From a virus (lineage: Duplodnaviria > Heunggongvirae > Uroviricota > Caudoviricetes): a stretch of DNA of 64,000 nucleotides. The stretch covers positions 1 to 64,000 of the IMG/VR virus record IMGVR_UViG_2671180676_000004. One strand, written 5' to 3'. How positions within the stretch are numbered: position 1 is the stretch's first letter; each line of letters opens with the position of its first letter. The notes beneath the pieces were generated by a model that saw only the letters and a list, made by a program, of their open reading frames with translations, was not told where the DNA came from and searched no databases. Of the stretch, positions 35,499-46,076 are shown in pieces. Position numbers and translations under genes: made by a program.

Positions 35499-36374
35499 AT
35501 GCCATTACTGCGTGAAGAAGCTGAAAAGCTGTCTAACAACGAACTTGAACAGGGCGTGATTGAAACCATCATCGATCGCGATGACCTGTTTGCCATCCTG
35601 CCTTTTATGAAAATTACTTCAAAGGCATATCTGTACAACCGTGAAAAAACGCTGAGTGAAGCTACCTTCATCGACGTTAACGACACCATCCCGGAAGGTG
35701 CAGCAACCTTCGAAGAATGCGTTGCGAAACTGCGTATTCTGGCTGGTGACGTAGACGTTGATAAATTCCTGGCAACCACTATGGCCGACACCAATAACCA
35801 GTTGGCTATTCAGGTTCGTCAGAAAGTTAAAGGTCTGGCTCGTGCGTTCCGTCGCAATCTGATTTTGGGTGACTCCAGCACCAACAACAAAGCGTTTGAC
35901 GGCATTCCACGCCTGATGCACGCAGATCAGAAGATCGATATCGCCGGTGCATCTATGACTTTCTCTATGTTCGACGAACTGGTCGATGCGGTGAAAGATC
36001 TTGGTGCTGACTGCATCATGATGCGTTCAGAGCACCTTCGTGCTTACCGTGCGCTGCTGCGTACAGTAAACGTAGGTCCGTCTGAAATCATGATGGAGAA
36101 CTTCGGTCGTCCGATGCTGTGTCATAACGGCGTTCCGTTCATCATCAACGACTTCATCCCGACTGATTCTGGCAAAGCAAGCATCTACTGCTTGCATCTG
36201 TCAGAAGAGAACGGCGTTACTGGTCTGTATGGCGGCGATAACGCAGGTATCGTTGTTGAAAACATTGGTACTGTACAGAACAAAGACGCAGTACGTACCC
36301 GTGTGAAGTGGTACTGCTCTCTGGCGAATAAGCACGATAAGGCTATCGCTGCACTGACCAATGTAAAAATTTAA
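35499..36374 (+). CDS. Major capsid protein (putative)
   Basis: 291 aa after the scaffold gene; followed by a strong intrinsic terminator. Confidence 0.7.
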   Translation: MPLLREEAEKLSNNELEQGVIETIIDRDDLFAILPFMKITSKAYLYNREKTLSEATFIDVNDTIPEGAATFEECVAKLRILAGDVDVDKFLATTMADTNNQLAIQVRQKVKGLARAFRRNLILGDSSTNNKAFDGIPRLMHADQKIDIAGASMTFSMFDELVDAVKDLGADCIMMRSEHLRAYRALLRTVNVGPSEIMMENFGRPMLCHNGVPFIINDFIPTDSGKASIYCLHLSEENGVTGLYGGDNAGIVVENIGTVQNKDAVRTRVKWYCSLANKHDKAIAALTNVKI

Positions 36375-36447: not shown

Positions 36448-37368
36448 ATGCCAGAACAAAAGATGAAGATTACGGAAGAGGCATTTTCGGATTTTACGGG
36501 GCATATGTGCCGTGCCGGATTTACCAATTCTATCTCCGATGAACCTTTAACCGAGCGGCAACAAAGTCAGCTATCTGCTTGTTTGCAGGCGGTTCCCCTC
36601 TCCCAATCCGTAAACATAACCCCGGCTTCACCGTCAGTTTTGGTTGGGAAAACTGTTCAACTTAGTGCAGGTATTAGTATGGGTAAGAGTGCCAGTTCAT
36701 TCACCTGGAAGTCAGCCAATGACCAAATTGCAACCGTTAACGGCACTGGATTAGTAACTGGCGTAGCACCAGGCAAAGTAAAAATTACTGCAACTGATCA
36801 GGAAACCCAGCTTTCCGCTTCAGTGGAAGTCACCGTAAATCCGGTAGCCGTTCAATCCGTAACGGTAACGCCAGAATCAACGTCTGTTGAGAAAGGGAAA
36901 TCAGTCAGTCTGAAAGCGAATGTTCAGCCGTCAAATGCGACGAATAAGGCTGTTACCTGGTCTTCCAAAAATGAAGATAAGGCAACGGTAGACCAGAGCG
37001 GGAACGTTACTGGTGTAGAAGTTGGCACTGCGACGATTGAGATCGTTTCCCAAGATGGCAGCAAAAAGGCAACTGCAACGGTGGAAGTAACTGCGCCTGT
37101 TGTGGCTGTTACCGGCGTCGAAATCGACCCAAATAGCACAACCGTTGAGGCAAACAAAACTGTTCAGCTGACAGCAAATGTCGAGCCGGCAGGAGCCACA
37201 AATAAAACCGTTACTTGGGAATCCAAAAATACCGAGTTTGCAACGGTTGACAGCGAAACCGGTGTTGTAACTGGTGTTGCGGCTGGTACTGCCACAATCG
37301 AGGTTACTACCCAAGATGGTAGCCACAAAGCGACAGCAACTGTAGAAGTTACTGCCGCACAGGAATAA
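36448..37368 (+). CDS. Ig-like (Big_2-type) repeat protein, putative head decoration
   Basis: Three repeats of a roughly 90-aa unit (…VTV/VTA…KxVxLxANVxPxxATNKxVTW(S/E)SKN…ATVD…GVxxGTATIEV…DGSxKATATVEVTA). Confidence 0.6.
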   Translation: MPEQKMKITEEAFSDFTGHMCRAGFTNSISDEPLTERQQSQLSACLQAVPLSQSVNITPASPSVLVGKTVQLSAGISMGKSASSFTWKSANDQIATVNGTGLVTGVAPGKVKITATDQETQLSASVEVTVNPVAVQSVTVTPESTSVEKGKSVSLKANVQPSNATNKAVTWSSKNEDKATVDQSGNVTGVEVGTATIEIVSQDGSKKATATVEVTAPVVAVTGVEIDPNSTTVEANKTVQLTANVEPAGATNKTVTWESKNTEFATVDSETGVVTGVAAGTATIEVTTQDGSHKATATVEVTAAQE

Positions 37369-39569: not shown

Positions 39570-39953
39570 GTGTTTATTGAAGCGTTTGCAAGTTTGATGC
39601 AGAAGGCAAAGATTGGCACGGTCGGGACTGACATTTTCTGTCACTACTTGCCTGCCAATGTGAAATCTGGCGTCCTGCTTATTAACCCAAATACCGGTAT
39701 CAGCATCGATCATGAGCTACAGGGCTTTTATCACGAATCATTCACAATCATTGTGCGTGGTTCGTCAATTACTACGACGGTTGAGAAAGCCAATAAAATC
39801 ATTGAGATGTTTCCAGTAGAGGAAACGGAATCTGGTGGTGTTTATTTTCGACTTGTACGACCGATGGCGATGCCAATCATTTATCCCAAAAATGATGGGG
39901 CATTAATAGAAGCAGGCATTCCTGTTGAATTTGCTGGCTATTTATTGAATTAA
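39570..39953 (+). CDS. Hypothetical tail terminator-like protein
   Basis: GTG 39570 with SD GAGAGG; the track ORF from 39447 overlaps the previous gene. Confidence 0.4.
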   Translation: MFIEAFASLMQKAKIGTVGTDIFCHYLPANVKSGVLLINPNTGISIDHELQGFYHESFTIIVRGSSITTTVEKANKIIEMFPVEETESGGVYFRLVRPMAMPIIYPKNDGALIEAGIPVEFAGYLLN

Positions 39954-40027: not shown

Positions 40028-40774
40028 ATGTCTAATACCCATGTAAAAAACATCAAACTTGGTGCCTGTAAGGTGTCGTTTGGTGGTGTGGATTTGGGTT
40101 ACACCAAAGGTGGTGTTCAGGTTGAAGTAGCCACTGAAACGCTGAAAGTCACCGTCGATCAGTTGGGGCAGACCGTAATTTCCGAATTAGTTCAGGGGCG
40201 CAACATTACCATCACCGCGCCTCTGGCTGAGTCTGTACTCCAAAACATGGTTGACCTGATGCCTGGTTCTACTCTGAGCGAAGATGACAACTCTGTCACG
40301 ATCACATCTGCACAGGGCGTTAACCTGATTGATGTGGCGAAGGAGCTGGTTCTGACTCCGCAGGACACCACCGACTATGTGTTGACCATCCCGAAAGCGG
40401 CAACCGCGGGCAACTTCACTATGACCTACCAGTCTGATGATGTTCGTGTGTTCTCTGTTCAGTTCAGCGCATACCCGGATGATGAAGGCGTTCTGGGCAA
40501 AATGAGCGGTCCTAAACCGGTAAAAACTGTGTCGATCTCACCGGAATCTCCAACCGTAAAAGCTGGAGAAACTGTGCAACTGACAGCCGAAATCACTCCA
40601 GCTGATGCCGCAGACAAAACCGGTGTTTGGGAATCCGAAGACCAGGAAAAGGCCACGGTAGATCAAACGGGTCTTGTGCGCGGTGTGGCGCAGGGTACTG
40701 CAAACATCTCCTTCACCAGCAATAGCGGTTCTAAGAAGGCTACTAAGTCAGTAACGATTAACTCCGCAGATTAA
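40028..40774 (+). CDS. Major tail protein with C-terminal Ig-like domain
   Basis: ATG 40028 with SD AAGGAG; C-terminus resembles the 36448 repeats (…AEITPADAADKTGVWESEDQEKATVDQTGLVRGV…). Confidence 0.65.
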   Translation: MSNTHVKNIKLGACKVSFGGVDLGYTKGGVQVEVATETLKVTVDQLGQTVISELVQGRNITITAPLAESVLQNMVDLMPGSTLSEDDNSVTITSAQGVNLIDVAKELVLTPQDTTDYVLTIPKAATAGNFTMTYQSDDVRVFSVQFSAYPDDEGVLGKMSGPKPVKTVSISPESPTVKAGETVQLTAEITPADAADKTGVWESEDQEKATVDQTGLVRGVAQGTANISFTSNSGSKKATKSVTINSAD

Positions 40775-40829: not shown

Positions 40830-41147
40830 ATGACCAAATTACTCGATCTCGATTCCATTCTGCCTCCGAAGAAAAGCATCAAATTTGGCGGTCAGGAATA
40901 TCCCATCGTTGAAATGACGGTAGGTCTGTTCGTTTCCATCAAGCAGATGGAAGGCAAAGATCTCATGAACATGTCTCCTGTTGAGCAAGTGACAGCTTAT
41001 GCAGATCTGGTTCGTAAGGTTATCCCTTCAGTACCTGACGAAGTTCTTGAAAAACTGACTGTTCCGCAACTCCAGCAGATCTTCACCTTCGCTATGGAAG
41101 TGATTGATGAAGAAAACGAAAAAGCGGCTGGCGAAGGGGCAAAGTAA
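40830..41147 (+). CDS. Tail assembly chaperone (lambda G-like)
   Basis: Small acidic protein between major tail and tape measure genes. Confidence 0.65.
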   Translation: MTKLLDLDSILPPKKSIKFGGQEYPIVEMTVGLFVSIKQMEGKDLMNMSPVEQVTAYADLVRKVIPSVPDEVLEKLTVPQLQQIFTFAMEVIDEENEKAAGEGAK

Positions 41148-41227
41148 TTTCCCGCGATGAATCCGGGACAAGGACCGTCTCAATAGATCTCGGATTCTAT
41201 TTCAGTCGTGTAGTTGCTCACTACGCC

Positions 41228-41497
41228 GTGTCGCCATTAGAGCTACTGAACGTTCCTCTCACGATGTTCTGGATGCTCAGTCGCAATATAGACCGTCTGC
41301 GTGCGGAAGAGGATGTCCGCAACTTACAAGTCGCTCGTGCGTCCCAGGCGGATGGCGAGGCTGTGAAGGCGTTCATGGAGGGTTTGCAACTCAGGATTGG
41401 AAGACCAGTCGTAACAGATAAAGTCTACGATCCAAGCCAGGATAAGGCAGACCCTGACGCCAAAGAGCAACTGATGCAAATATTTGGCAGAGGATGA
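41228..41497 (+). CDS. Tail assembly chaperone frameshift extension (lambda T-like)
   Basis: -1 frame open from 41111, overlapping the last 12 codons of the G-like gene; no independent ATG (track start is GTG). Confidence 0.45.
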   Translation: MSPLELLNVPLTMFWMLSRNIDRLRAEEDVRNLQVARASQADGEAVKAFMEGLQLRIGRPVVTDKVYDPSQDKADPDAKEQLMQIFGRG

Positions 41498-41504
41498 CAA
41501 GGGA

Positions 41505-44500
41505 ATGTCACAAAACGTAGAGTTTATCCTGTCGCTGGAAGACAAACAGTTTACAGCGTCAATCGATCGTGCGGGGAAACTGCTTACTCGATTTGGTGAG
41601 CAGGTAACAAAGCCTGCTCAAAAAATCCAAACCTTTGAACGCTCTTTGGGTTCGGTCGCCCGTATCATGGGCGTTCTGGAAAGCAAGCTCGATTCTACGG
41701 CAGATAAACTACAGGATGTAGCTGCCGGTTTTGAGCTTGCTTCAGATGCTACGCGTAAAATGCGTGGCAACATCACCAGCCTCAATTCTGGTCTTAAAGC
41801 CCTGATTGAGCGCGTCGATACGACAACTTCTTCAGTAGATAAACTCACCGCGTCATTACGTAAAGTGCAATCAGAGCTAAATGATTTCTCTGATTGGGCG
41901 ACCTATGCAAGCAAAAGCGCAAGCCGCTTTGGTACGGAGGTCAAAGAAGCCTCTGCGTCCGTGAGTGGCATGAATACGCGCCTTAATACCACGACGAAGC
42001 GACTCAGTAATTGGGGTGTCACAACGAGTCAGGCTGCCGAGGGACTGAAAAAGGTTCGTGAGCAGATGGACGAAGTTATCGGACGTCAGCAACTGATTAG
42101 CAAGCCGGTACGCGTTCGTACATCTGGAAGTGGCGATGGTGGTAGCGGGCGGCGTAGCGGCGCTTCTGGCCATAGCGGTAAAAGTAACGAAGGAGGTATG
42201 TTCTCTGGCCTTCGTGGCAACATTTTCCTGCTTGGCGAGATCGGAGATGCAGCCAGAACGGTTACTGACATAATGTTTGGGTGGCAGAAGCCTATTGTTG
42301 AAGCTGCGGCCGAAATGGAACGTATGCGGGTGATGCTTCGAGGGTTGAATAAGGAGAAGTCCAACCCGGGCCAGGCTGCCGCTGATGATATGAAGTACAT
42401 CGTAGACATGGCGCAAAATGCGCCGTTCGCGATGCAGGCGTTAACAGATTCCTTCGTGAAGTTTCGTTCTGCTGGCTTAGATCCAACCGATGGTTCTCTG
42501 AAGGCGCTGGTGGACTCCGTTGCTCGTTTTGGTGGTGATAGTGAGCTGTTGAAACGTGCGGCTGTGGCCGTTCAGCAGATGTCCGGTAAGGGCGTTGTGT
42601 CAATGGAAGAGCTACGTCAGCAATTAGGTGAAGCCGTTCCTAACGCGATGCAGGCAATGGCAGACGCCGCAGGCATCACTATGGGGGAACTGACTAAAGC
42701 CGTTGCCAGCGGTACGGTTGAGGCAAAACAGGCGTTGTCTCTGATGTTTGTTGGTCTGCGTGCGGAGAATGAGAACGCAGCGAAAGACATGATGCAAACC
42801 TACACAGGTGCGCTGGCACAACTTCAGACCTCATTTACGCTATTTGCAGATCGTGTTGGTCAGGCCGGATATCTGGATTCTCTATCAAAGGGGATGAAAG
42901 AACTGGCTTCAATCATGAATAGCGCGGAAGGGATTTCGTTTGCCAATTCTTTAGGTTCGGGGTTAACGACGGCAATCGATGGGTTGCGTCAGCTTGCTCA
43001 ATGGTTAGCAAAGAACCAAGAGTTGGTAATTAATCTCGGTAAGGTTGTGGCCGCGATGGTTGCGTTCAAACTGATGCGAGCAGGGGTCATGGGGGTAGTT
43101 GGCGCTGGCAGCCAGATGGTTAGCACCTTTGCCACGATGGCGACCGCTATACAGACTCCATTTAACCTCGGCGCTACAGCAGTAACTCGATTCAATCGTG
43201 CGGCACGTATGGGGCTGGCTCCGATCCCCTCTCTTATTTTCGCCATCCGTGGGGCGATTACGGGGCTTAAAGGCGCTTTTGCAGGATTAACGGCGTTCAT
43301 TGCGGCAAACCCTATAGGGGCAGCATTTACAGTCGCCACTGTAGCTGTTGCTGGCCTAATCACGTACATGACCATGCTCCGCAGCGAAACTTCAAAGGTC
43401 GTTGACGAGATTAGGAAAATACCAGAGGCGATGACGGCGGCCAAACGTGCACAAATGGCCGACCGCGCAGAAAAGCTCGAAAAGCAGATTCTTGCTGATC
43501 AACGAGCATTAAAAACTGGTGAGGGTGTTAATTACGTATCTAACTCTGCCGGTGTTATTACTCACAAAGAGTCGAAGGCTGACATCGAAGCACGCCTGAA
43601 AAAAAATCAGGAGGAGTATCAAAAGATAACCGGCACGATAGCTCTTGGTGACGGCGCTGTAGCAAAGCGTTTGGCTAAAGAGGCTGCCGAATCTCAGATT
43701 GAGAAAATTCGAGCGGAAAACCAGATTTTCGCGGCAACATTCGTGAAAGCCCGGCAAGAGGCTCTGGATAAGATCCAGAAAATCAATGATGACGGTTCAC
43801 TTTCAGATGACGAAAAGAACAAGCTATTGGCACCGTTACGTGAAACGGTAAACAAAAGCTATCTGGAGCCTGCGCAAAAACTGGTTGATTCACTTTCTTC
43901 TCGTAAGAATGCGACCGAGAAGCAAATTGCGACTCTTAATGATCAGCTTGAAAAAGCCAAAAAGGATGGAAATACCGAGCAGATCCAGAAACTGCAAGGC
44001 AGTATTCGTGGTTATCAGGAGCATTTGGAAGCCGTTGCTCAGGAGCTGACTCAGGCAGAGTTCGAGAGAGATAACGCGGCCAAAACTGGTAAGGGCGTAA
44101 TGTCAAACCAGGGGACTGTTCTTGGGTTAGGTACAACTGATAAAGCTGCTCAGAAGGCGCTGGCGCAATATATGCGAAACCAGATGGATTCTGCGACTTA
44201 TCAACGTACTTTGCCTGACGGCACTCCGATGATGGACTTCGAAGGTAAGCCGATTATTGGGCCTAAACAACTCAAGACGCAGCTTAATTTGCAGAAAGCA
44301 TCCAGTGCCAGCTCTCTGGAGAAAATGAGCGATGAAGAGCGTGCCGCAGCCATTGCCGCACTTACTAAAGCTCGTGAACAGGATGCCGCAGCCGCCGAGA
44401 AAGCAGCCCAACGATCAGCTAATGCCTCGCAGCGTGCGGCCAAGAAAGAACAGGCAGCGCAACAGAAACTGGCGGCCGGATATCAGAAGGCTCTGGATAA

Positions 44501-46076
44501 AGCCGATCAGCTTATGGGGCAAATGGGTGAAAGCTCTAAGGCTACGGTATCGTTTGATCAGTCTCTTCGCGATACAACAAAATCGCTAACTGATTTGGCT
44601 AATGCGATTCCTAACGAGTTCATCACTCAAGAGATGATCGACAAGGCGAAAAAACGTCTTGAAGACCTCAAAAATGCGACACCTGAATATCGCGAGATGT
44701 TTAATCGCCGCAATGTTGAGCAGATGATCTCCACTTGGGCACCGGAGGCGGATTCCATTATTAGTGCTGGCTATACGCCATCTCGCGAAGAGAAAGTTGC
44801 TGATTTCGAAGACACCTACAACCGCAATCTCAAAGCGTTGATAGAACTTCGTGATAAGGCGTCTGATCCTAAAGTTGTGGCGCTTTATACAAAGAAAATC
44901 AATCAACTGATTGCTGCTGGCAATACCGCGCTTATTAAAGAGACGGGGACTGCGACGCAGAAGTTGGCACTGGAATACGAAAACCTGGCAGAGCAGGTCG
45001 AAAGCACCTGGACTGATTTGTTTAGTGGCTTAACTGATGTCCTGACTGATTTCGTTATTAACGGGAAGATGAGCTTCTCCAGCCTATCTCAGTCCATTTT
45101 GAAAGATATCACCAATATGGTCGTGAAGTCGCAGATCACGCTGCCTCTAATGAACATGTTGGGGATGGGAACCACCGCAGCTGGTAGTTCACAGAGTGGC
45201 AATTTGCTGACCGGGGTTGCTTCTGCCGTTGCCAATCAAGGTGTACGAATGGGCAACACTGTTAATGGCGACAAGTCGGTAGGAGAAGCCACGAAGGAGA
45301 CGTCCAGTTCGGTAACTGGATTGGGGCAAACAACACAGCAGACCACCAGCGCAATTGGCACAGCAACAAATGCGATTGGTAGCTGGGTATCGGGGCTATT
45401 TGATAGCACCGAAGCCAAAGATGCTGAGACAAAAGCAGTGAAGGACTCCATCTTCTCGATGCAGAATCTCAGCTCTGTTACCGGCGCTCTGTCAGCCGCG
45501 TTTGCAATGCTTGGAGCTAATGCTTCCGGCTCTGGTAATAAGTGGTTGAATTTCGGCGCGACAGTTGCATCTGGTTTGGTTTCAGTATGGGCTGGTGGTG
45601 GATTCGATGGATTGATGTCCGGTTCTTCTGGCTCAACTTCCGGGTTCAACAATCTGACCAGTTCTGCTGCCGATGGCACGAATGGTATTCCTGCAATTCC
45701 GAAGTTTGCAAATGGTGGCATATTCGGAAAAGACGGCGTGATCCCGCTCCGGGCATACCAGAAAGGCGGTATCGCCAACTCACCTCAATTGGCGTTGTTT
45801 GGGGAAGGCGATATGAATGAGGCGTATGTTCCATTGCCTGATGGTCGAACAATCCCTGTAACGCTCAGTACCGATGGTATGAGTGGAGGAGGAAATGTTC
45901 TTTCTCCGGTATCAATTGAGATCAACGTCCATAGTGACGGTAGCACAACTGAATCCGGCGATACAGAAAGCATATGGAACAATGCCGCTCAACGGATGAA
46001 AGCAATCGCGCTTGAGACTATCGCTCAAGAGAAACGCCCTGGCGGATCACTCAACCCAAACACTCAACGTAACTAA
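41505..46076 (+). CDS. Tail tape measure protein
   Basis: About 1520 aa, helical, Gly/Ala-rich TM-like central block; ATG 41505 with SD AAGGGA. Confidence 0.85.
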   Translation: MSQNVEFILSLEDKQFTASIDRAGKLLTRFGEQVTKPAQKIQTFERSLGSVARIMGVLESKLDSTADKLQDVAAGFELASDATRKMRGNITSLNSGLKALIERVDTTTSSVDKLTASLRKVQSELNDFSDWATYASKSASRFGTEVKEASASVSGMNTRLNTTTKRLSNWGVTTSQAAEGLKKVREQMDEVIGRQQLISKPVRVRTSGSGDGGSGRRSGASGHSGKSNEGGMFSGLRGNIFLLGEIGDAARTVTDIMFGWQKPIVEAAAEMERMRVMLRGLNKEKSNPGQAAADDMKYIVDMAQNAPFAMQALTDSFVKFRSAGLDPTDGSLKALVDSVARFGGDSELLKRAAVAVQQMSGKGVVSMEELRQQLGEAVPNAMQAMADAAGITMGELTKAVASGTVEAKQALSLMFVGLRAENENAAKDMMQTYTGALAQLQTSFTLFADRVGQAGYLDSLSKGMKELASIMNSAEGISFANSLGSGLTTAIDGLRQLAQWLAKNQELVINLGKVVAAMVAFKLMRAGVMGVVGAGSQMVSTFATMATAIQTPFNLGATAVTRFNRAARMGLAPIPSLIFAIRGAITGLKGAFAGLTAFIAANPIGAAFTVATVAVAGLITYMTMLRSETSKVVDEIRKIPEAMTAAKRAQMADRAEKLEKQILADQRALKTGEGVNYVSNSAGVITHKESKADIEARLKKNQEEYQKITGTIALGDGAVAKRLAKEAAESQIEKIRAENQIFAATFVKARQEALDKIQKINDDGSLSDDEKNKLLAPLRETVNKSYLEPAQKLVDSLSSRKNATEKQIATLNDQLEKAKKDGNTEQIQKLQGSIRGYQEHLEAVAQELTQAEFERDNAAKTGKGVMSNQGTVLGLGTTDKAAQKALAQYMRNQMDSATYQRTLPDGTPMMDFEGKPIIGPKQLKTQLNLQKASSASSLEKMSDEERAAAIAALTKAREQDAAAAEKAAQRSANASQRAAKKEQAAQQKLAAGYQKALDKADQLMGQMGESSKATVSFDQSLRDTTKSLTDLANAIPNEFITQEMIDKAKKRLEDLKNATPEYREMFNRRNVEQMISTWAPEADSIISAGYTPSREEKVADFEDTYNRNLKALIELRDKASDPKVVALYTKKINQLIAAGNTALIKETGTATQKLALEYENLAEQVESTWTDLFSGLTDVLTDFVINGKMSFSSLSQSILKDITNMVVKSQITLPLMNMLGMGTTAAGSSQSGNLLTGVASAVANQGVRMGNTVNGDKSVGEATKETSSSVTGLGQTTQQTTSAIGTATNAIGSWVSGLFDSTEAKDAETKAVKDSIFSMQNLSSVTGALSAAFAMLGANASGSGNKWLNFGATVASGLVSVWAGGGFDGLMSGSSGSTSGFNNLTSSAADGTNGIPAIPKFANGGIFGKDGVIPLRAYQKGGIANSPQLALFGEGDMNEAYVPLPDGRTIPVTLSTDGMSGGGNVLSPVSIEINVHSDGSTTESGDTESIWNNAAQRMKAIALETIAQEKRPGGSLNPNTQRN

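Follow-up and report, generated by a model that had tools for sequence, protein, structure and literature searches.

A probable -1 frameshift at an A_AAG tetramer abutting the stop codon links two tail assembly chaperone frames in SSU5-type phage-plasmids

The stretch of DNA analysed here (hereafter, the window: positions 1 to 64,000 of the Caudoviricetes record IMGVR_UViG_2671180676_000004 in IMG/VR, 64,000 nucleotides (nt) in all) contains two short, overlapping open reading frames (ORFs) that resemble, in their arrangement, the G and T frames of phage lambda. The two frames very likely encode a tail assembly chaperone pair, in which the short product, G, is made by conventional translation and the long product, GT, arises by -1 ribosomal slippage at the tetramer A_AAG located immediately before the G stop codon. 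An original prediction, made from the sequence of the window alone, had already proposed a -1 frameshift between these frames and placed the slip at the run GAAAAAG in their overlap; the comparative evidence retains the frameshift and moves the site to the very end of G. The features on which the argument depends are the following.

40830..41147, plus strand: G-like tail assembly chaperone ORF (predicted), 105 amino acids (aa), 11.7 kDa, frame 0, stop codon TAA at 41145-41147
41118..41124, plus strand: the run GAAAAAG named earlier, in the phase GAA.AAA.GCG; not the conserved slip site
41141..41147, plus strand: proposed slip site, A_AAG followed by the G stop TAA; AAG (41142-41144) would re-pair to AAA (41141-41143)
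41144..41497, plus strand: T part, -1 frame, 117 codons, from GTA at 41144 to the stop TGA at 41495-41497
41153..41210, plus strand: candidate stimulatory hairpin (bulged stem-loop), an RNAalifold consensus of 23 distinct sequences that begins 8 nt past the slip site

Under the favoured explanation, most ribosomes would stop at TAA after making the 105-aa G-like protein (40830-41147). In a small fraction of cases, the Lys-tRNA(UUU) on the last sense codon, AAG (41142-41144), would slip back one base to AAA (41141-41143), and translation would then proceed in the -1 frame (GTA ATT TCC ...) to the TGA at 41495-41497, producing a GT fusion with a predicted size of 222 aa and 24.8 kDa (junction ...AAGEGAK/VISRDESG...). 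The slip would probably be aided by the adjacent stop codon, where decoding of the next codon is slow, and by the conserved hairpin 8 nt downstream. If the roles of lambda gpG and gpGT carry over, the tape measure protein would be coated by G together with the G portion of GT, and recruitment of the major tail protein, which has an immunoglobulin (Ig) domain, would fall to the T portion; neither G nor GT would be present in the virion.

The principal evidence comes from the comparison of 88 SSU5-like loci from IMG/VR, GenBank phages and plasmids, which comprise 63 distinct sequences. Every one of the 88 loci has its T frame at -1 to G, and this frame stays intact for 117-119 codons past the end of G and the slip site; the comparison of the overlap in homologues, which the original prediction had asked for, finds the -1 frame after the G end uninterrupted in every locus. 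Within G, the wobble position of the G frame is the most variable codon position, with 87 of the 93 columns varying among the 63 distinct sequences. In the 80 nt from the G stop to the first possible T start (41148-41227), the variable columns number 2/27, 22/27 and 11/26 for positions equal to 0, 1 and 2 modulo 3, so that the most variable phase becomes the wobble position of the -1 frame (22/27), and the switch occurs immediately after the G stop. The sole indels in this segment are two insertions of 3 nt. When the -1 translation from 41144 is used as the tblastn query, matches begin at residue 1 in essentially all loci, and at residues 1-3 in close and distant relatives. The phase switch, the 3-nt indels and the matches from residue 1 jointly lead to the conclusion that 41148-41227 is, judging from the pattern of substitutions, translated in the -1 frame even though it has no start codon, which is the signature of a frameshift extension. 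Inside the overlap (41111-41147), variation is still concentrated at the G-frame wobble (9/13 columns, against 1/12 and 4/12 for the other two phases), and therefore the frame switch has to be located at the very end of G.

The conserved site at this end is, by sequence, A_AAG_TAA (41141-41147). None of the 88 loci, and hence none of the 63 distinct sequences, departs from the hexanucleotide AAAGTA (41141-41146), which contains the G-frame wobble positions 41141 and 41144; at this level of divergence, only 10 of the 105 wobble positions in G are invariant. The terminal lysine of G is likewise invariant in all aligned G homologs, and the stop codon, TAA or, in a few loci, TAG, always directly follows AAG. 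In 35 of the 88 loci, the overlap of the two frames is reduced to a minimum of 10 nt, AGGGGCAAAG, which is read as AGG GGC AAA G in the -1 frame and as GGG GCA AAG in frame 0; of the codons in this overlap, AAG alone allows its tRNA to re-pair in the -1 frame with a cognate codon, AAA.

The slip proposed originally, that of a Lys-tRNA from AAA (41121-41123) to 41120-41122 within GAAAAAG, would give a fusion of the form ...EENEK-SGWRRGKVISRD... and is very unlikely to be the source of GT. The run is indeed present at 41118-41124, the -1 frame is open from upstream of it in the window and in 54 of the 88 loci, so that a GT-like product could be made, and, in Escherichia coli, A_AAA is among the six tetramers at which a stimulator raises frameshifting (PMC4066793). 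However, GAAAAAG is not an X_XXY_YYZ heptamer because its zero-frame phase is GAA.AAA.GCG; it offers only the tetramer A_AAA (41120-41123), the weakest of the active ones (PMC4066793). In the whole of 41111-41147, there is no in-phase X_XXY_YYZ heptamer, and the only tetramers are this one and A_AAG (41141-41144). In four divergent loci, the run is replaced by GAAGCCG. Furthermore, in 35 of the 88 loci (SSU5, pMT1, Cronobacter and others), the Gly codon at 41130-41132 is GGT, which places a -1-frame TGA (TGG TGA) after the run but ahead of the G stop; ribosomes shifting at the run could therefore not make GT in those loci. The synonymous position 41132 is T, and thus creates this TGA, in 25 of the 63 distinct sequences, which implies that the -1 frame is clearly unprotected by selection there; consistently with the phase counts given above, substitutions across 41111-41147 track the G frame and not the -1 frame. 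The candidate hairpin is about 30 nt away from the run.

The limits of the T frame have been confirmed from the sequence: preceded by a TGA at 41108-41110, it runs open from 41111 as far as the TGA at 41495-41497 (128 codons), overlapping the last 37 nt (12 codons) of G, as originally described. This 12-codon overlap is specific to the lineage of the window, given the 10-nt overlap of the 35 related loci. The accompanying claim that the T-like frame lacks an ATG does not hold, inasmuch as there are in-frame ATG codons at 41264 and 41273, in addition to GTG at 41228; it is the first 39 codons of the -1 frame that contain no start codon. A simpler alternative can accordingly be formulated, in which there is no frameshift and T is a separate small protein initiated at GTG 41228, ATG 41264 or ATG 41273. 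GenBank and RefSeq have adopted this solution, annotating a separate 75-90-aa 'hypothetical protein' from one or another of these codons, but the chosen start is inconsistent between records. None of the in-frame starts has a Shine-Dalgarno match: the duplexes with the 3' end of 16S rRNA have energies of -1.6 (GTG 41228), +0.4 (ATG 41264) and -0.5 kcal/mol (ATG 41273), weaker than the local background mean of -2.9 kcal/mol, whereas most of the neighbouring gene starts tested lie between -5.4 and -11.2 kcal/mol, with -5.4 kcal/mol for G itself. The separate-protein alternative also leaves no place for the -1-frame constraint and the exclusively 3-nt indels in the 80 nt that precede the first possible start, for the protein similarity that starts at the G stop in close and distant relatives, or for the canonical slippery heptamers in the overlaps of the distant relatives described below, and we consider it very unlikely. 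The G/T frameshift is missing from every annotated public record examined, all of which list two separate hypothetical proteins. The T part belongs to phrog_1131, a family labelled 'unknown function' whose profile matches the -1 frame over residues 45-128 alone; this partial coverage appears to be a symptom of a family built from 5'-truncated gene calls.

The fusion could, in principle, also be produced by transcriptional slippage, or the T frame could be entered by termination and reinitiation at the G stop, instead of ribosomal slippage. Transcriptional slippage finds some encouragement in the A8 run of the relative ANB28, which could permit polymerase slippage, but the conserved site has only three A residues. 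Three A residues are too few for polymerase slippage. As for reinitiation, the stop/restart overlap TAATT superficially resembles coupling motifs, but the -1 codon over the stop is ATT, GTT or ATA in the SSU5-like loci and GTA in L095, one of the distant lineages discussed below, and none of these is an efficient start. Both routes are therefore regarded as exceedingly improbable.

Returning to ribosomal slippage at A_AAG, tetramers of the Z_ZZN type are minimal -1 frameshift sites, and A_AAG far outperforms the others in E. coli, with a frequency of about 0.15%, near background, on its own and 5.6% in combination with the pseudoknot of IS3 (PMC4066793). Because the tetramer alone is near background and the molar ratio of gpG to gpGT in lambda is about 30:1 (PMC5009743), a stimulator is expected at the A_AAG of the SSU5-like loci. 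The hairpin at 41153-41210 is a candidate for this role on the strength of its sequence conservation. It consists of a middle helix (41153-41158 with 41205-41210) and an inner helix (41159-41168 with 41188-41197), and the inner 8 base pairs (41159-41166 with 41190-41197) are paired in 100% of the 23 distinct sequences. The changes in the inner helix preserve pairing: there are G-U transitions at three pairs, one U-A to G-C double change and, in the two extension pairs, G-C to A-U and A-U to G-C changes. None of 500 shuffles reached the observed pairing or covariation, and the overall pairing is 96.8%, compared with 29-46% in slid controls. Three other candidates in the vicinity have been rejected. 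A small hairpin after the stop (UCCCG at 41150-54 with CGGGA at 41164-68, 5-nt spacer) is lost in Cronobacter, Photorhabdus-like and divergent Klebsiella sequences; another hairpin, at 41210-41224, has a disrupted stem in 7 of the 23 sequences; and the upstream GAAGGGG, considered as a Shine-Dalgarno-like stimulator, varies (GAAGAGG, GAAGAAG, GAAGACG) and is too close to the slip site.

The stop codon directly 3' of the shift codon is a second candidate stimulator. Such a 'shifty stop' is an idea reportedly put forward by Weiss et al. in 1987. With respect to RNA structure on a broader scale, the sequences downstream of the slip sites were folded for eight lineages and gave z-scores between -0.6 and -3.5 (mean about -2.2). 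In all eight, the 3' arm of the predicted hairpin lies within the codons of the conserved T-part motif IDxGFYF; in the distant lineages L091-L094, L095, L097 and L099, the 5' arm is located in a variable linker, with a sequence that differs by lineage. There are hints that the linker co-evolves with the IDxGFYF codons at the RNA level.

The same gene arrangement extends well beyond the SSU5-like elements. Homologs of T with 27-37% identity are found in Pseudomonas Nickievirus, Rhizobium and Stenotrophomonas phages, and distant G homologs (28-35% identity) were reached by an exhaustive profile search and then located on contigs. In all seven distant lineages, the T frame is -1 and overlaps the end of G, and six of the seven have a canonical in-phase heptamer. 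The motifs in the overlaps are as follows.

hairong: G_GGA_AAA
V1VFA-S: G_GGA_AAG, lambda's own motif as checked in the lambda sequence (L090)
RHEph10: G_GGA_AAC
ANB28: A_AAA_AAA
L097: G_GGA_AAA
L099: G_GGA_AAC
L095: A_AAG, then TAG

L095 (GCA_040136825.1, a 107-kb contig; 35% identity in G) has, at positions 2812-2821, A_AAG followed by two consecutive zero-frame stops, TAG TAA. Among the lineages examined, the stop directly follows the shift codon only in the two that have a tetramer, the SSU5 clade and L095; in the heptamer lineages, it comes 1-11 codons later. The Nickieviruses (hairong and nickie), V1VFA-S, RHEph10 and ANB28 thus resemble the SSU5 clade in having homologous G and T, a -1 overlap, the same neighbours and an annotation as two hypothetical proteins (a slippage join is annotated in 0 of the 4 GenBank phage records among the distant lineages), whereas hairong, V1VFA-S, RHEph10 and ANB28 differ from it in the use of in-phase heptamers, with the G stop 1-11 codons downstream as opposed to adjacent. 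It is conceivable, and we put it forward tentatively, that lineages of the phrog_893/phrog_1131 families, to which G and T belong, swapped the heptamer for the A_AAG tetramer, which would be made efficient by the abutting stop and the hairpin 8 nt downstream. The original view that the window has the conserved G/GT arrangement of long-tailed phages is borne out by synteny, the frame relation, the coding-phase switch, the lack of initiation signals and the heptamers of the distant relatives.

For G itself, remote homology and predicted structure were also analysed. G falls in phrog_893, labelled 'unknown function'. A word-indexed protein search with G recovered close relatives only, and the exhaustive profile search was needed for the remote ones, of which there are 433, about 100-130 aa long; all 78 remote homologs included in the G profile fall in phrog_893, and three of the 78 weakly touch PF10109 (Phage_TAC_7; best E 1.3e-4). 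Searches of PDB sequences with G and T yielded nothing relevant. The AlphaFold2 model of G (pLDDT 71.5) has two short strands and four main helices. With this model, whose pLDDT is only 71.5, the best Foldseek match in BFVD is named 'Tail assembly chaperone' (E = 2.8e-4, TM 0.67/0.60), and at least 10 further matches among the top 50 (E 0.008-0.11) bear a tail assembly chaperone name, which is the dominant one. At the sequence level, G and T are outside the gpG and gpT families; what they share with the lambda G/GT system is the architecture and, as we infer by analogy with lambda, the chaperone functions.

Several observations weigh against the favoured explanation. To begin with, G lacks a Pfam match: at E <= 0.1, Pfam gives no relevant match for either G or T, the sole one being the irrelevant MGT5A_N (E = 0.084). 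When the 78-sequence G profile is compared with lambda gpG by hhalign, the probability is 2%, that is, there is no detectable similarity, and the Foldseek search of the G model against solved structures in PDB produced no match with E <= 0.001. The folding energy of the hairpin is ordinary (z = -0.9 for 41150-41214; range -0.9 to -2.2), and the two most divergent Klebsiella plasmids do not preserve the middle helix. Selection on the protein could account for part of the conservation of the hairpin, which overlaps the conserved peptide motif IDLGFYF, and the sequences compared are related and protein-coding. Finally, the tetramer alone is barely above background in E. coli reporters (PMC4066793), and hence the explanation depends on stimulators, the roles of which, like the occurrence and rate of the slippage itself, we infer from conservation and from known frameshift sites.

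The element in the window is, by sequence similarity, an SSU5-type phage-plasmid. The 780 nt around the G/T region are 99.9% identical to Escherichia phage CMS-2020a and 99.7% identical to phage Cyrano, with 92% identity to Salmonella phage SSU5 and 87-89% to Klebsiella phage-plasmids, and a PLSDB search detects the region on 785 plasmids, which together are the basis of this classification. The carriers include Y. pestis pMT1-type, Klebsiella, E. coli, Enterobacter, Salmonella, Citrobacter and Cronobacter plasmids, many of them clinical. The gene order corresponds to a lambda-like siphovirus tail module, namely terminator, major tail protein, G, T, tape measure protein (TMP), M, L and K, and the two ORFs, G and T, sit between the major tail gene and the tape measure gene, as the G/GT arrangement requires. 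The neighbouring genes that define the module are as follows.

39570..39953, plus strand: tail terminator (Pfam PF12691, Phage_tail_terminator_6, E = 3.6e-16)
40028..40774, plus strand: major tail (tube) protein with a C-terminal Ig-like domain (Big_2, E = 4.6e-26; PHROG matches to major tail proteins)
41505..46076, plus strand: TMP (PF20155, TMP_3, E = 4.3e-27; PF09718, E = 2.4e-13)

Downstream of TMP are M (PF05939), L (PF05100) and K (JAB and NlpC/P60). For two of these genes, the start of the longest ORF is misleading. ATG 40028 (Shine-Dalgarno -8.2 kcal/mol, in agreement with the RefSeq gene length) is the most likely start of the major tail gene, in preference to 39992 (+1.3 kcal/mol); TMP most likely starts at ATG 41505 (-6.3 kcal/mol), 7 nt beyond the T stop, and not at TTG 41484 (-2.1 kcal/mol). 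Upstream of the tail module, a putative major capsid gene at 35499-36374 has weak matches to PF19307 and PF20911; the 306-aa ORF directly after it (36448-37368) shows, by eye, about three Ig-like repeats and may encode a head decoration protein. In some plasmids, the tail operon appears to be damaged. The K. pneumoniae plasmid pCRKP18622-1 (locus L004, 1958-2655) carries IS1B between the T stop and the tape measure start, an insertion that probably uncouples or disrupts the operon, and the match to the G region in NZ_CP084346.1 (35174-35427), a 77-kb pMT1-type plasmid of Y. pestis, covers its initial 254 nt only, which suggests a deletion of the T part and probably of more of the tail module.

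A G/GT frameshift is an ordinary, expected feature of siphovirus tail modules, and the value of recognizing it here is mainly corrective: the annotation of the second gene, with its arbitrary starts, is amended and a function is assigned, in elements that are very common in clinical Enterobacterales. If the assignment is correct, it provides a function for two sizeable PHROG families of 'unknown function' and for genes carried by hundreds of clinical Enterobacterales plasmids, including pMT1. The system is, furthermore, a clear case of a phage tail chaperone with an A_AAG-plus-stop tetramer in place of a heptamer within one protein family; should the exchange of heptamer and tetramer be real, these families would present a natural series of frameshift signal classes that substitute for one another while the G:GT ratio is held. 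In the open-access literature searched, which excludes most subscription papers so that an earlier description is possible, there is no report of a frameshift in SSU5-type elements, and the list of backward motifs used by PRFect does not include the A_AAG-plus-stop class of tetramers (PMC10885494).

Among the known systems, lambda gpG/gpGT (Levin, Hendrix and Casjens 1993; Xu, Hendrix and Duda 2004, 2013, 2014), as summarised in PMC5009743, is the closest in architecture: the genes lie between the major tail and tape measure genes, and the shift involves a Lys-tRNA on AAG. In both lambda and the window, a short G ORF is followed by a -1 ORF that overlaps the 3' end of G and has no initiation signals of its own, and the flanking M, L and K of the window are true lambda-family proteins. 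The signals themselves are different. The lambda sequence (L090) reads GCG GGA AAG, with the heptamer G_GGA_AAG about 6 codons before the stop, whereas the site in the window is a tetramer, A_AAG, that abuts the stop. A conserved downstream hairpin is predicted here, unlike in lambda, which is said, in work by Levin et al. in 1993, to need no downstream hairpin stimulator.

In the nature of the slip site, the closer parallels are IS3, IS1222 and cdd of Bacillus subtilis, where a minimal Z_ZZN site is used as well and a Lys AAG codon is re-paired to AAA; A_AAG is used by IS1222 in the context G_CGA_AAG and occurs in B. subtilis cdd in the context A_CGA_AAG (PMC5009743). The efficiency of these A_AAG sites depends on a downstream structure a few nt away (PMC4066793, PMC5009743), which in IS3 is a pseudoknot with a 5-nt spacer; the predicted stimulator in the window is a bulged hairpin with an 8-nt spacer. 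In contrast to IS3, IS1222 and cdd, which are transposase or cellular genes, the A_AAG site described here would serve phage tail chaperone genes, and it has, unlike any of the three, a zero-frame stop codon directly 3' of the shift codon.

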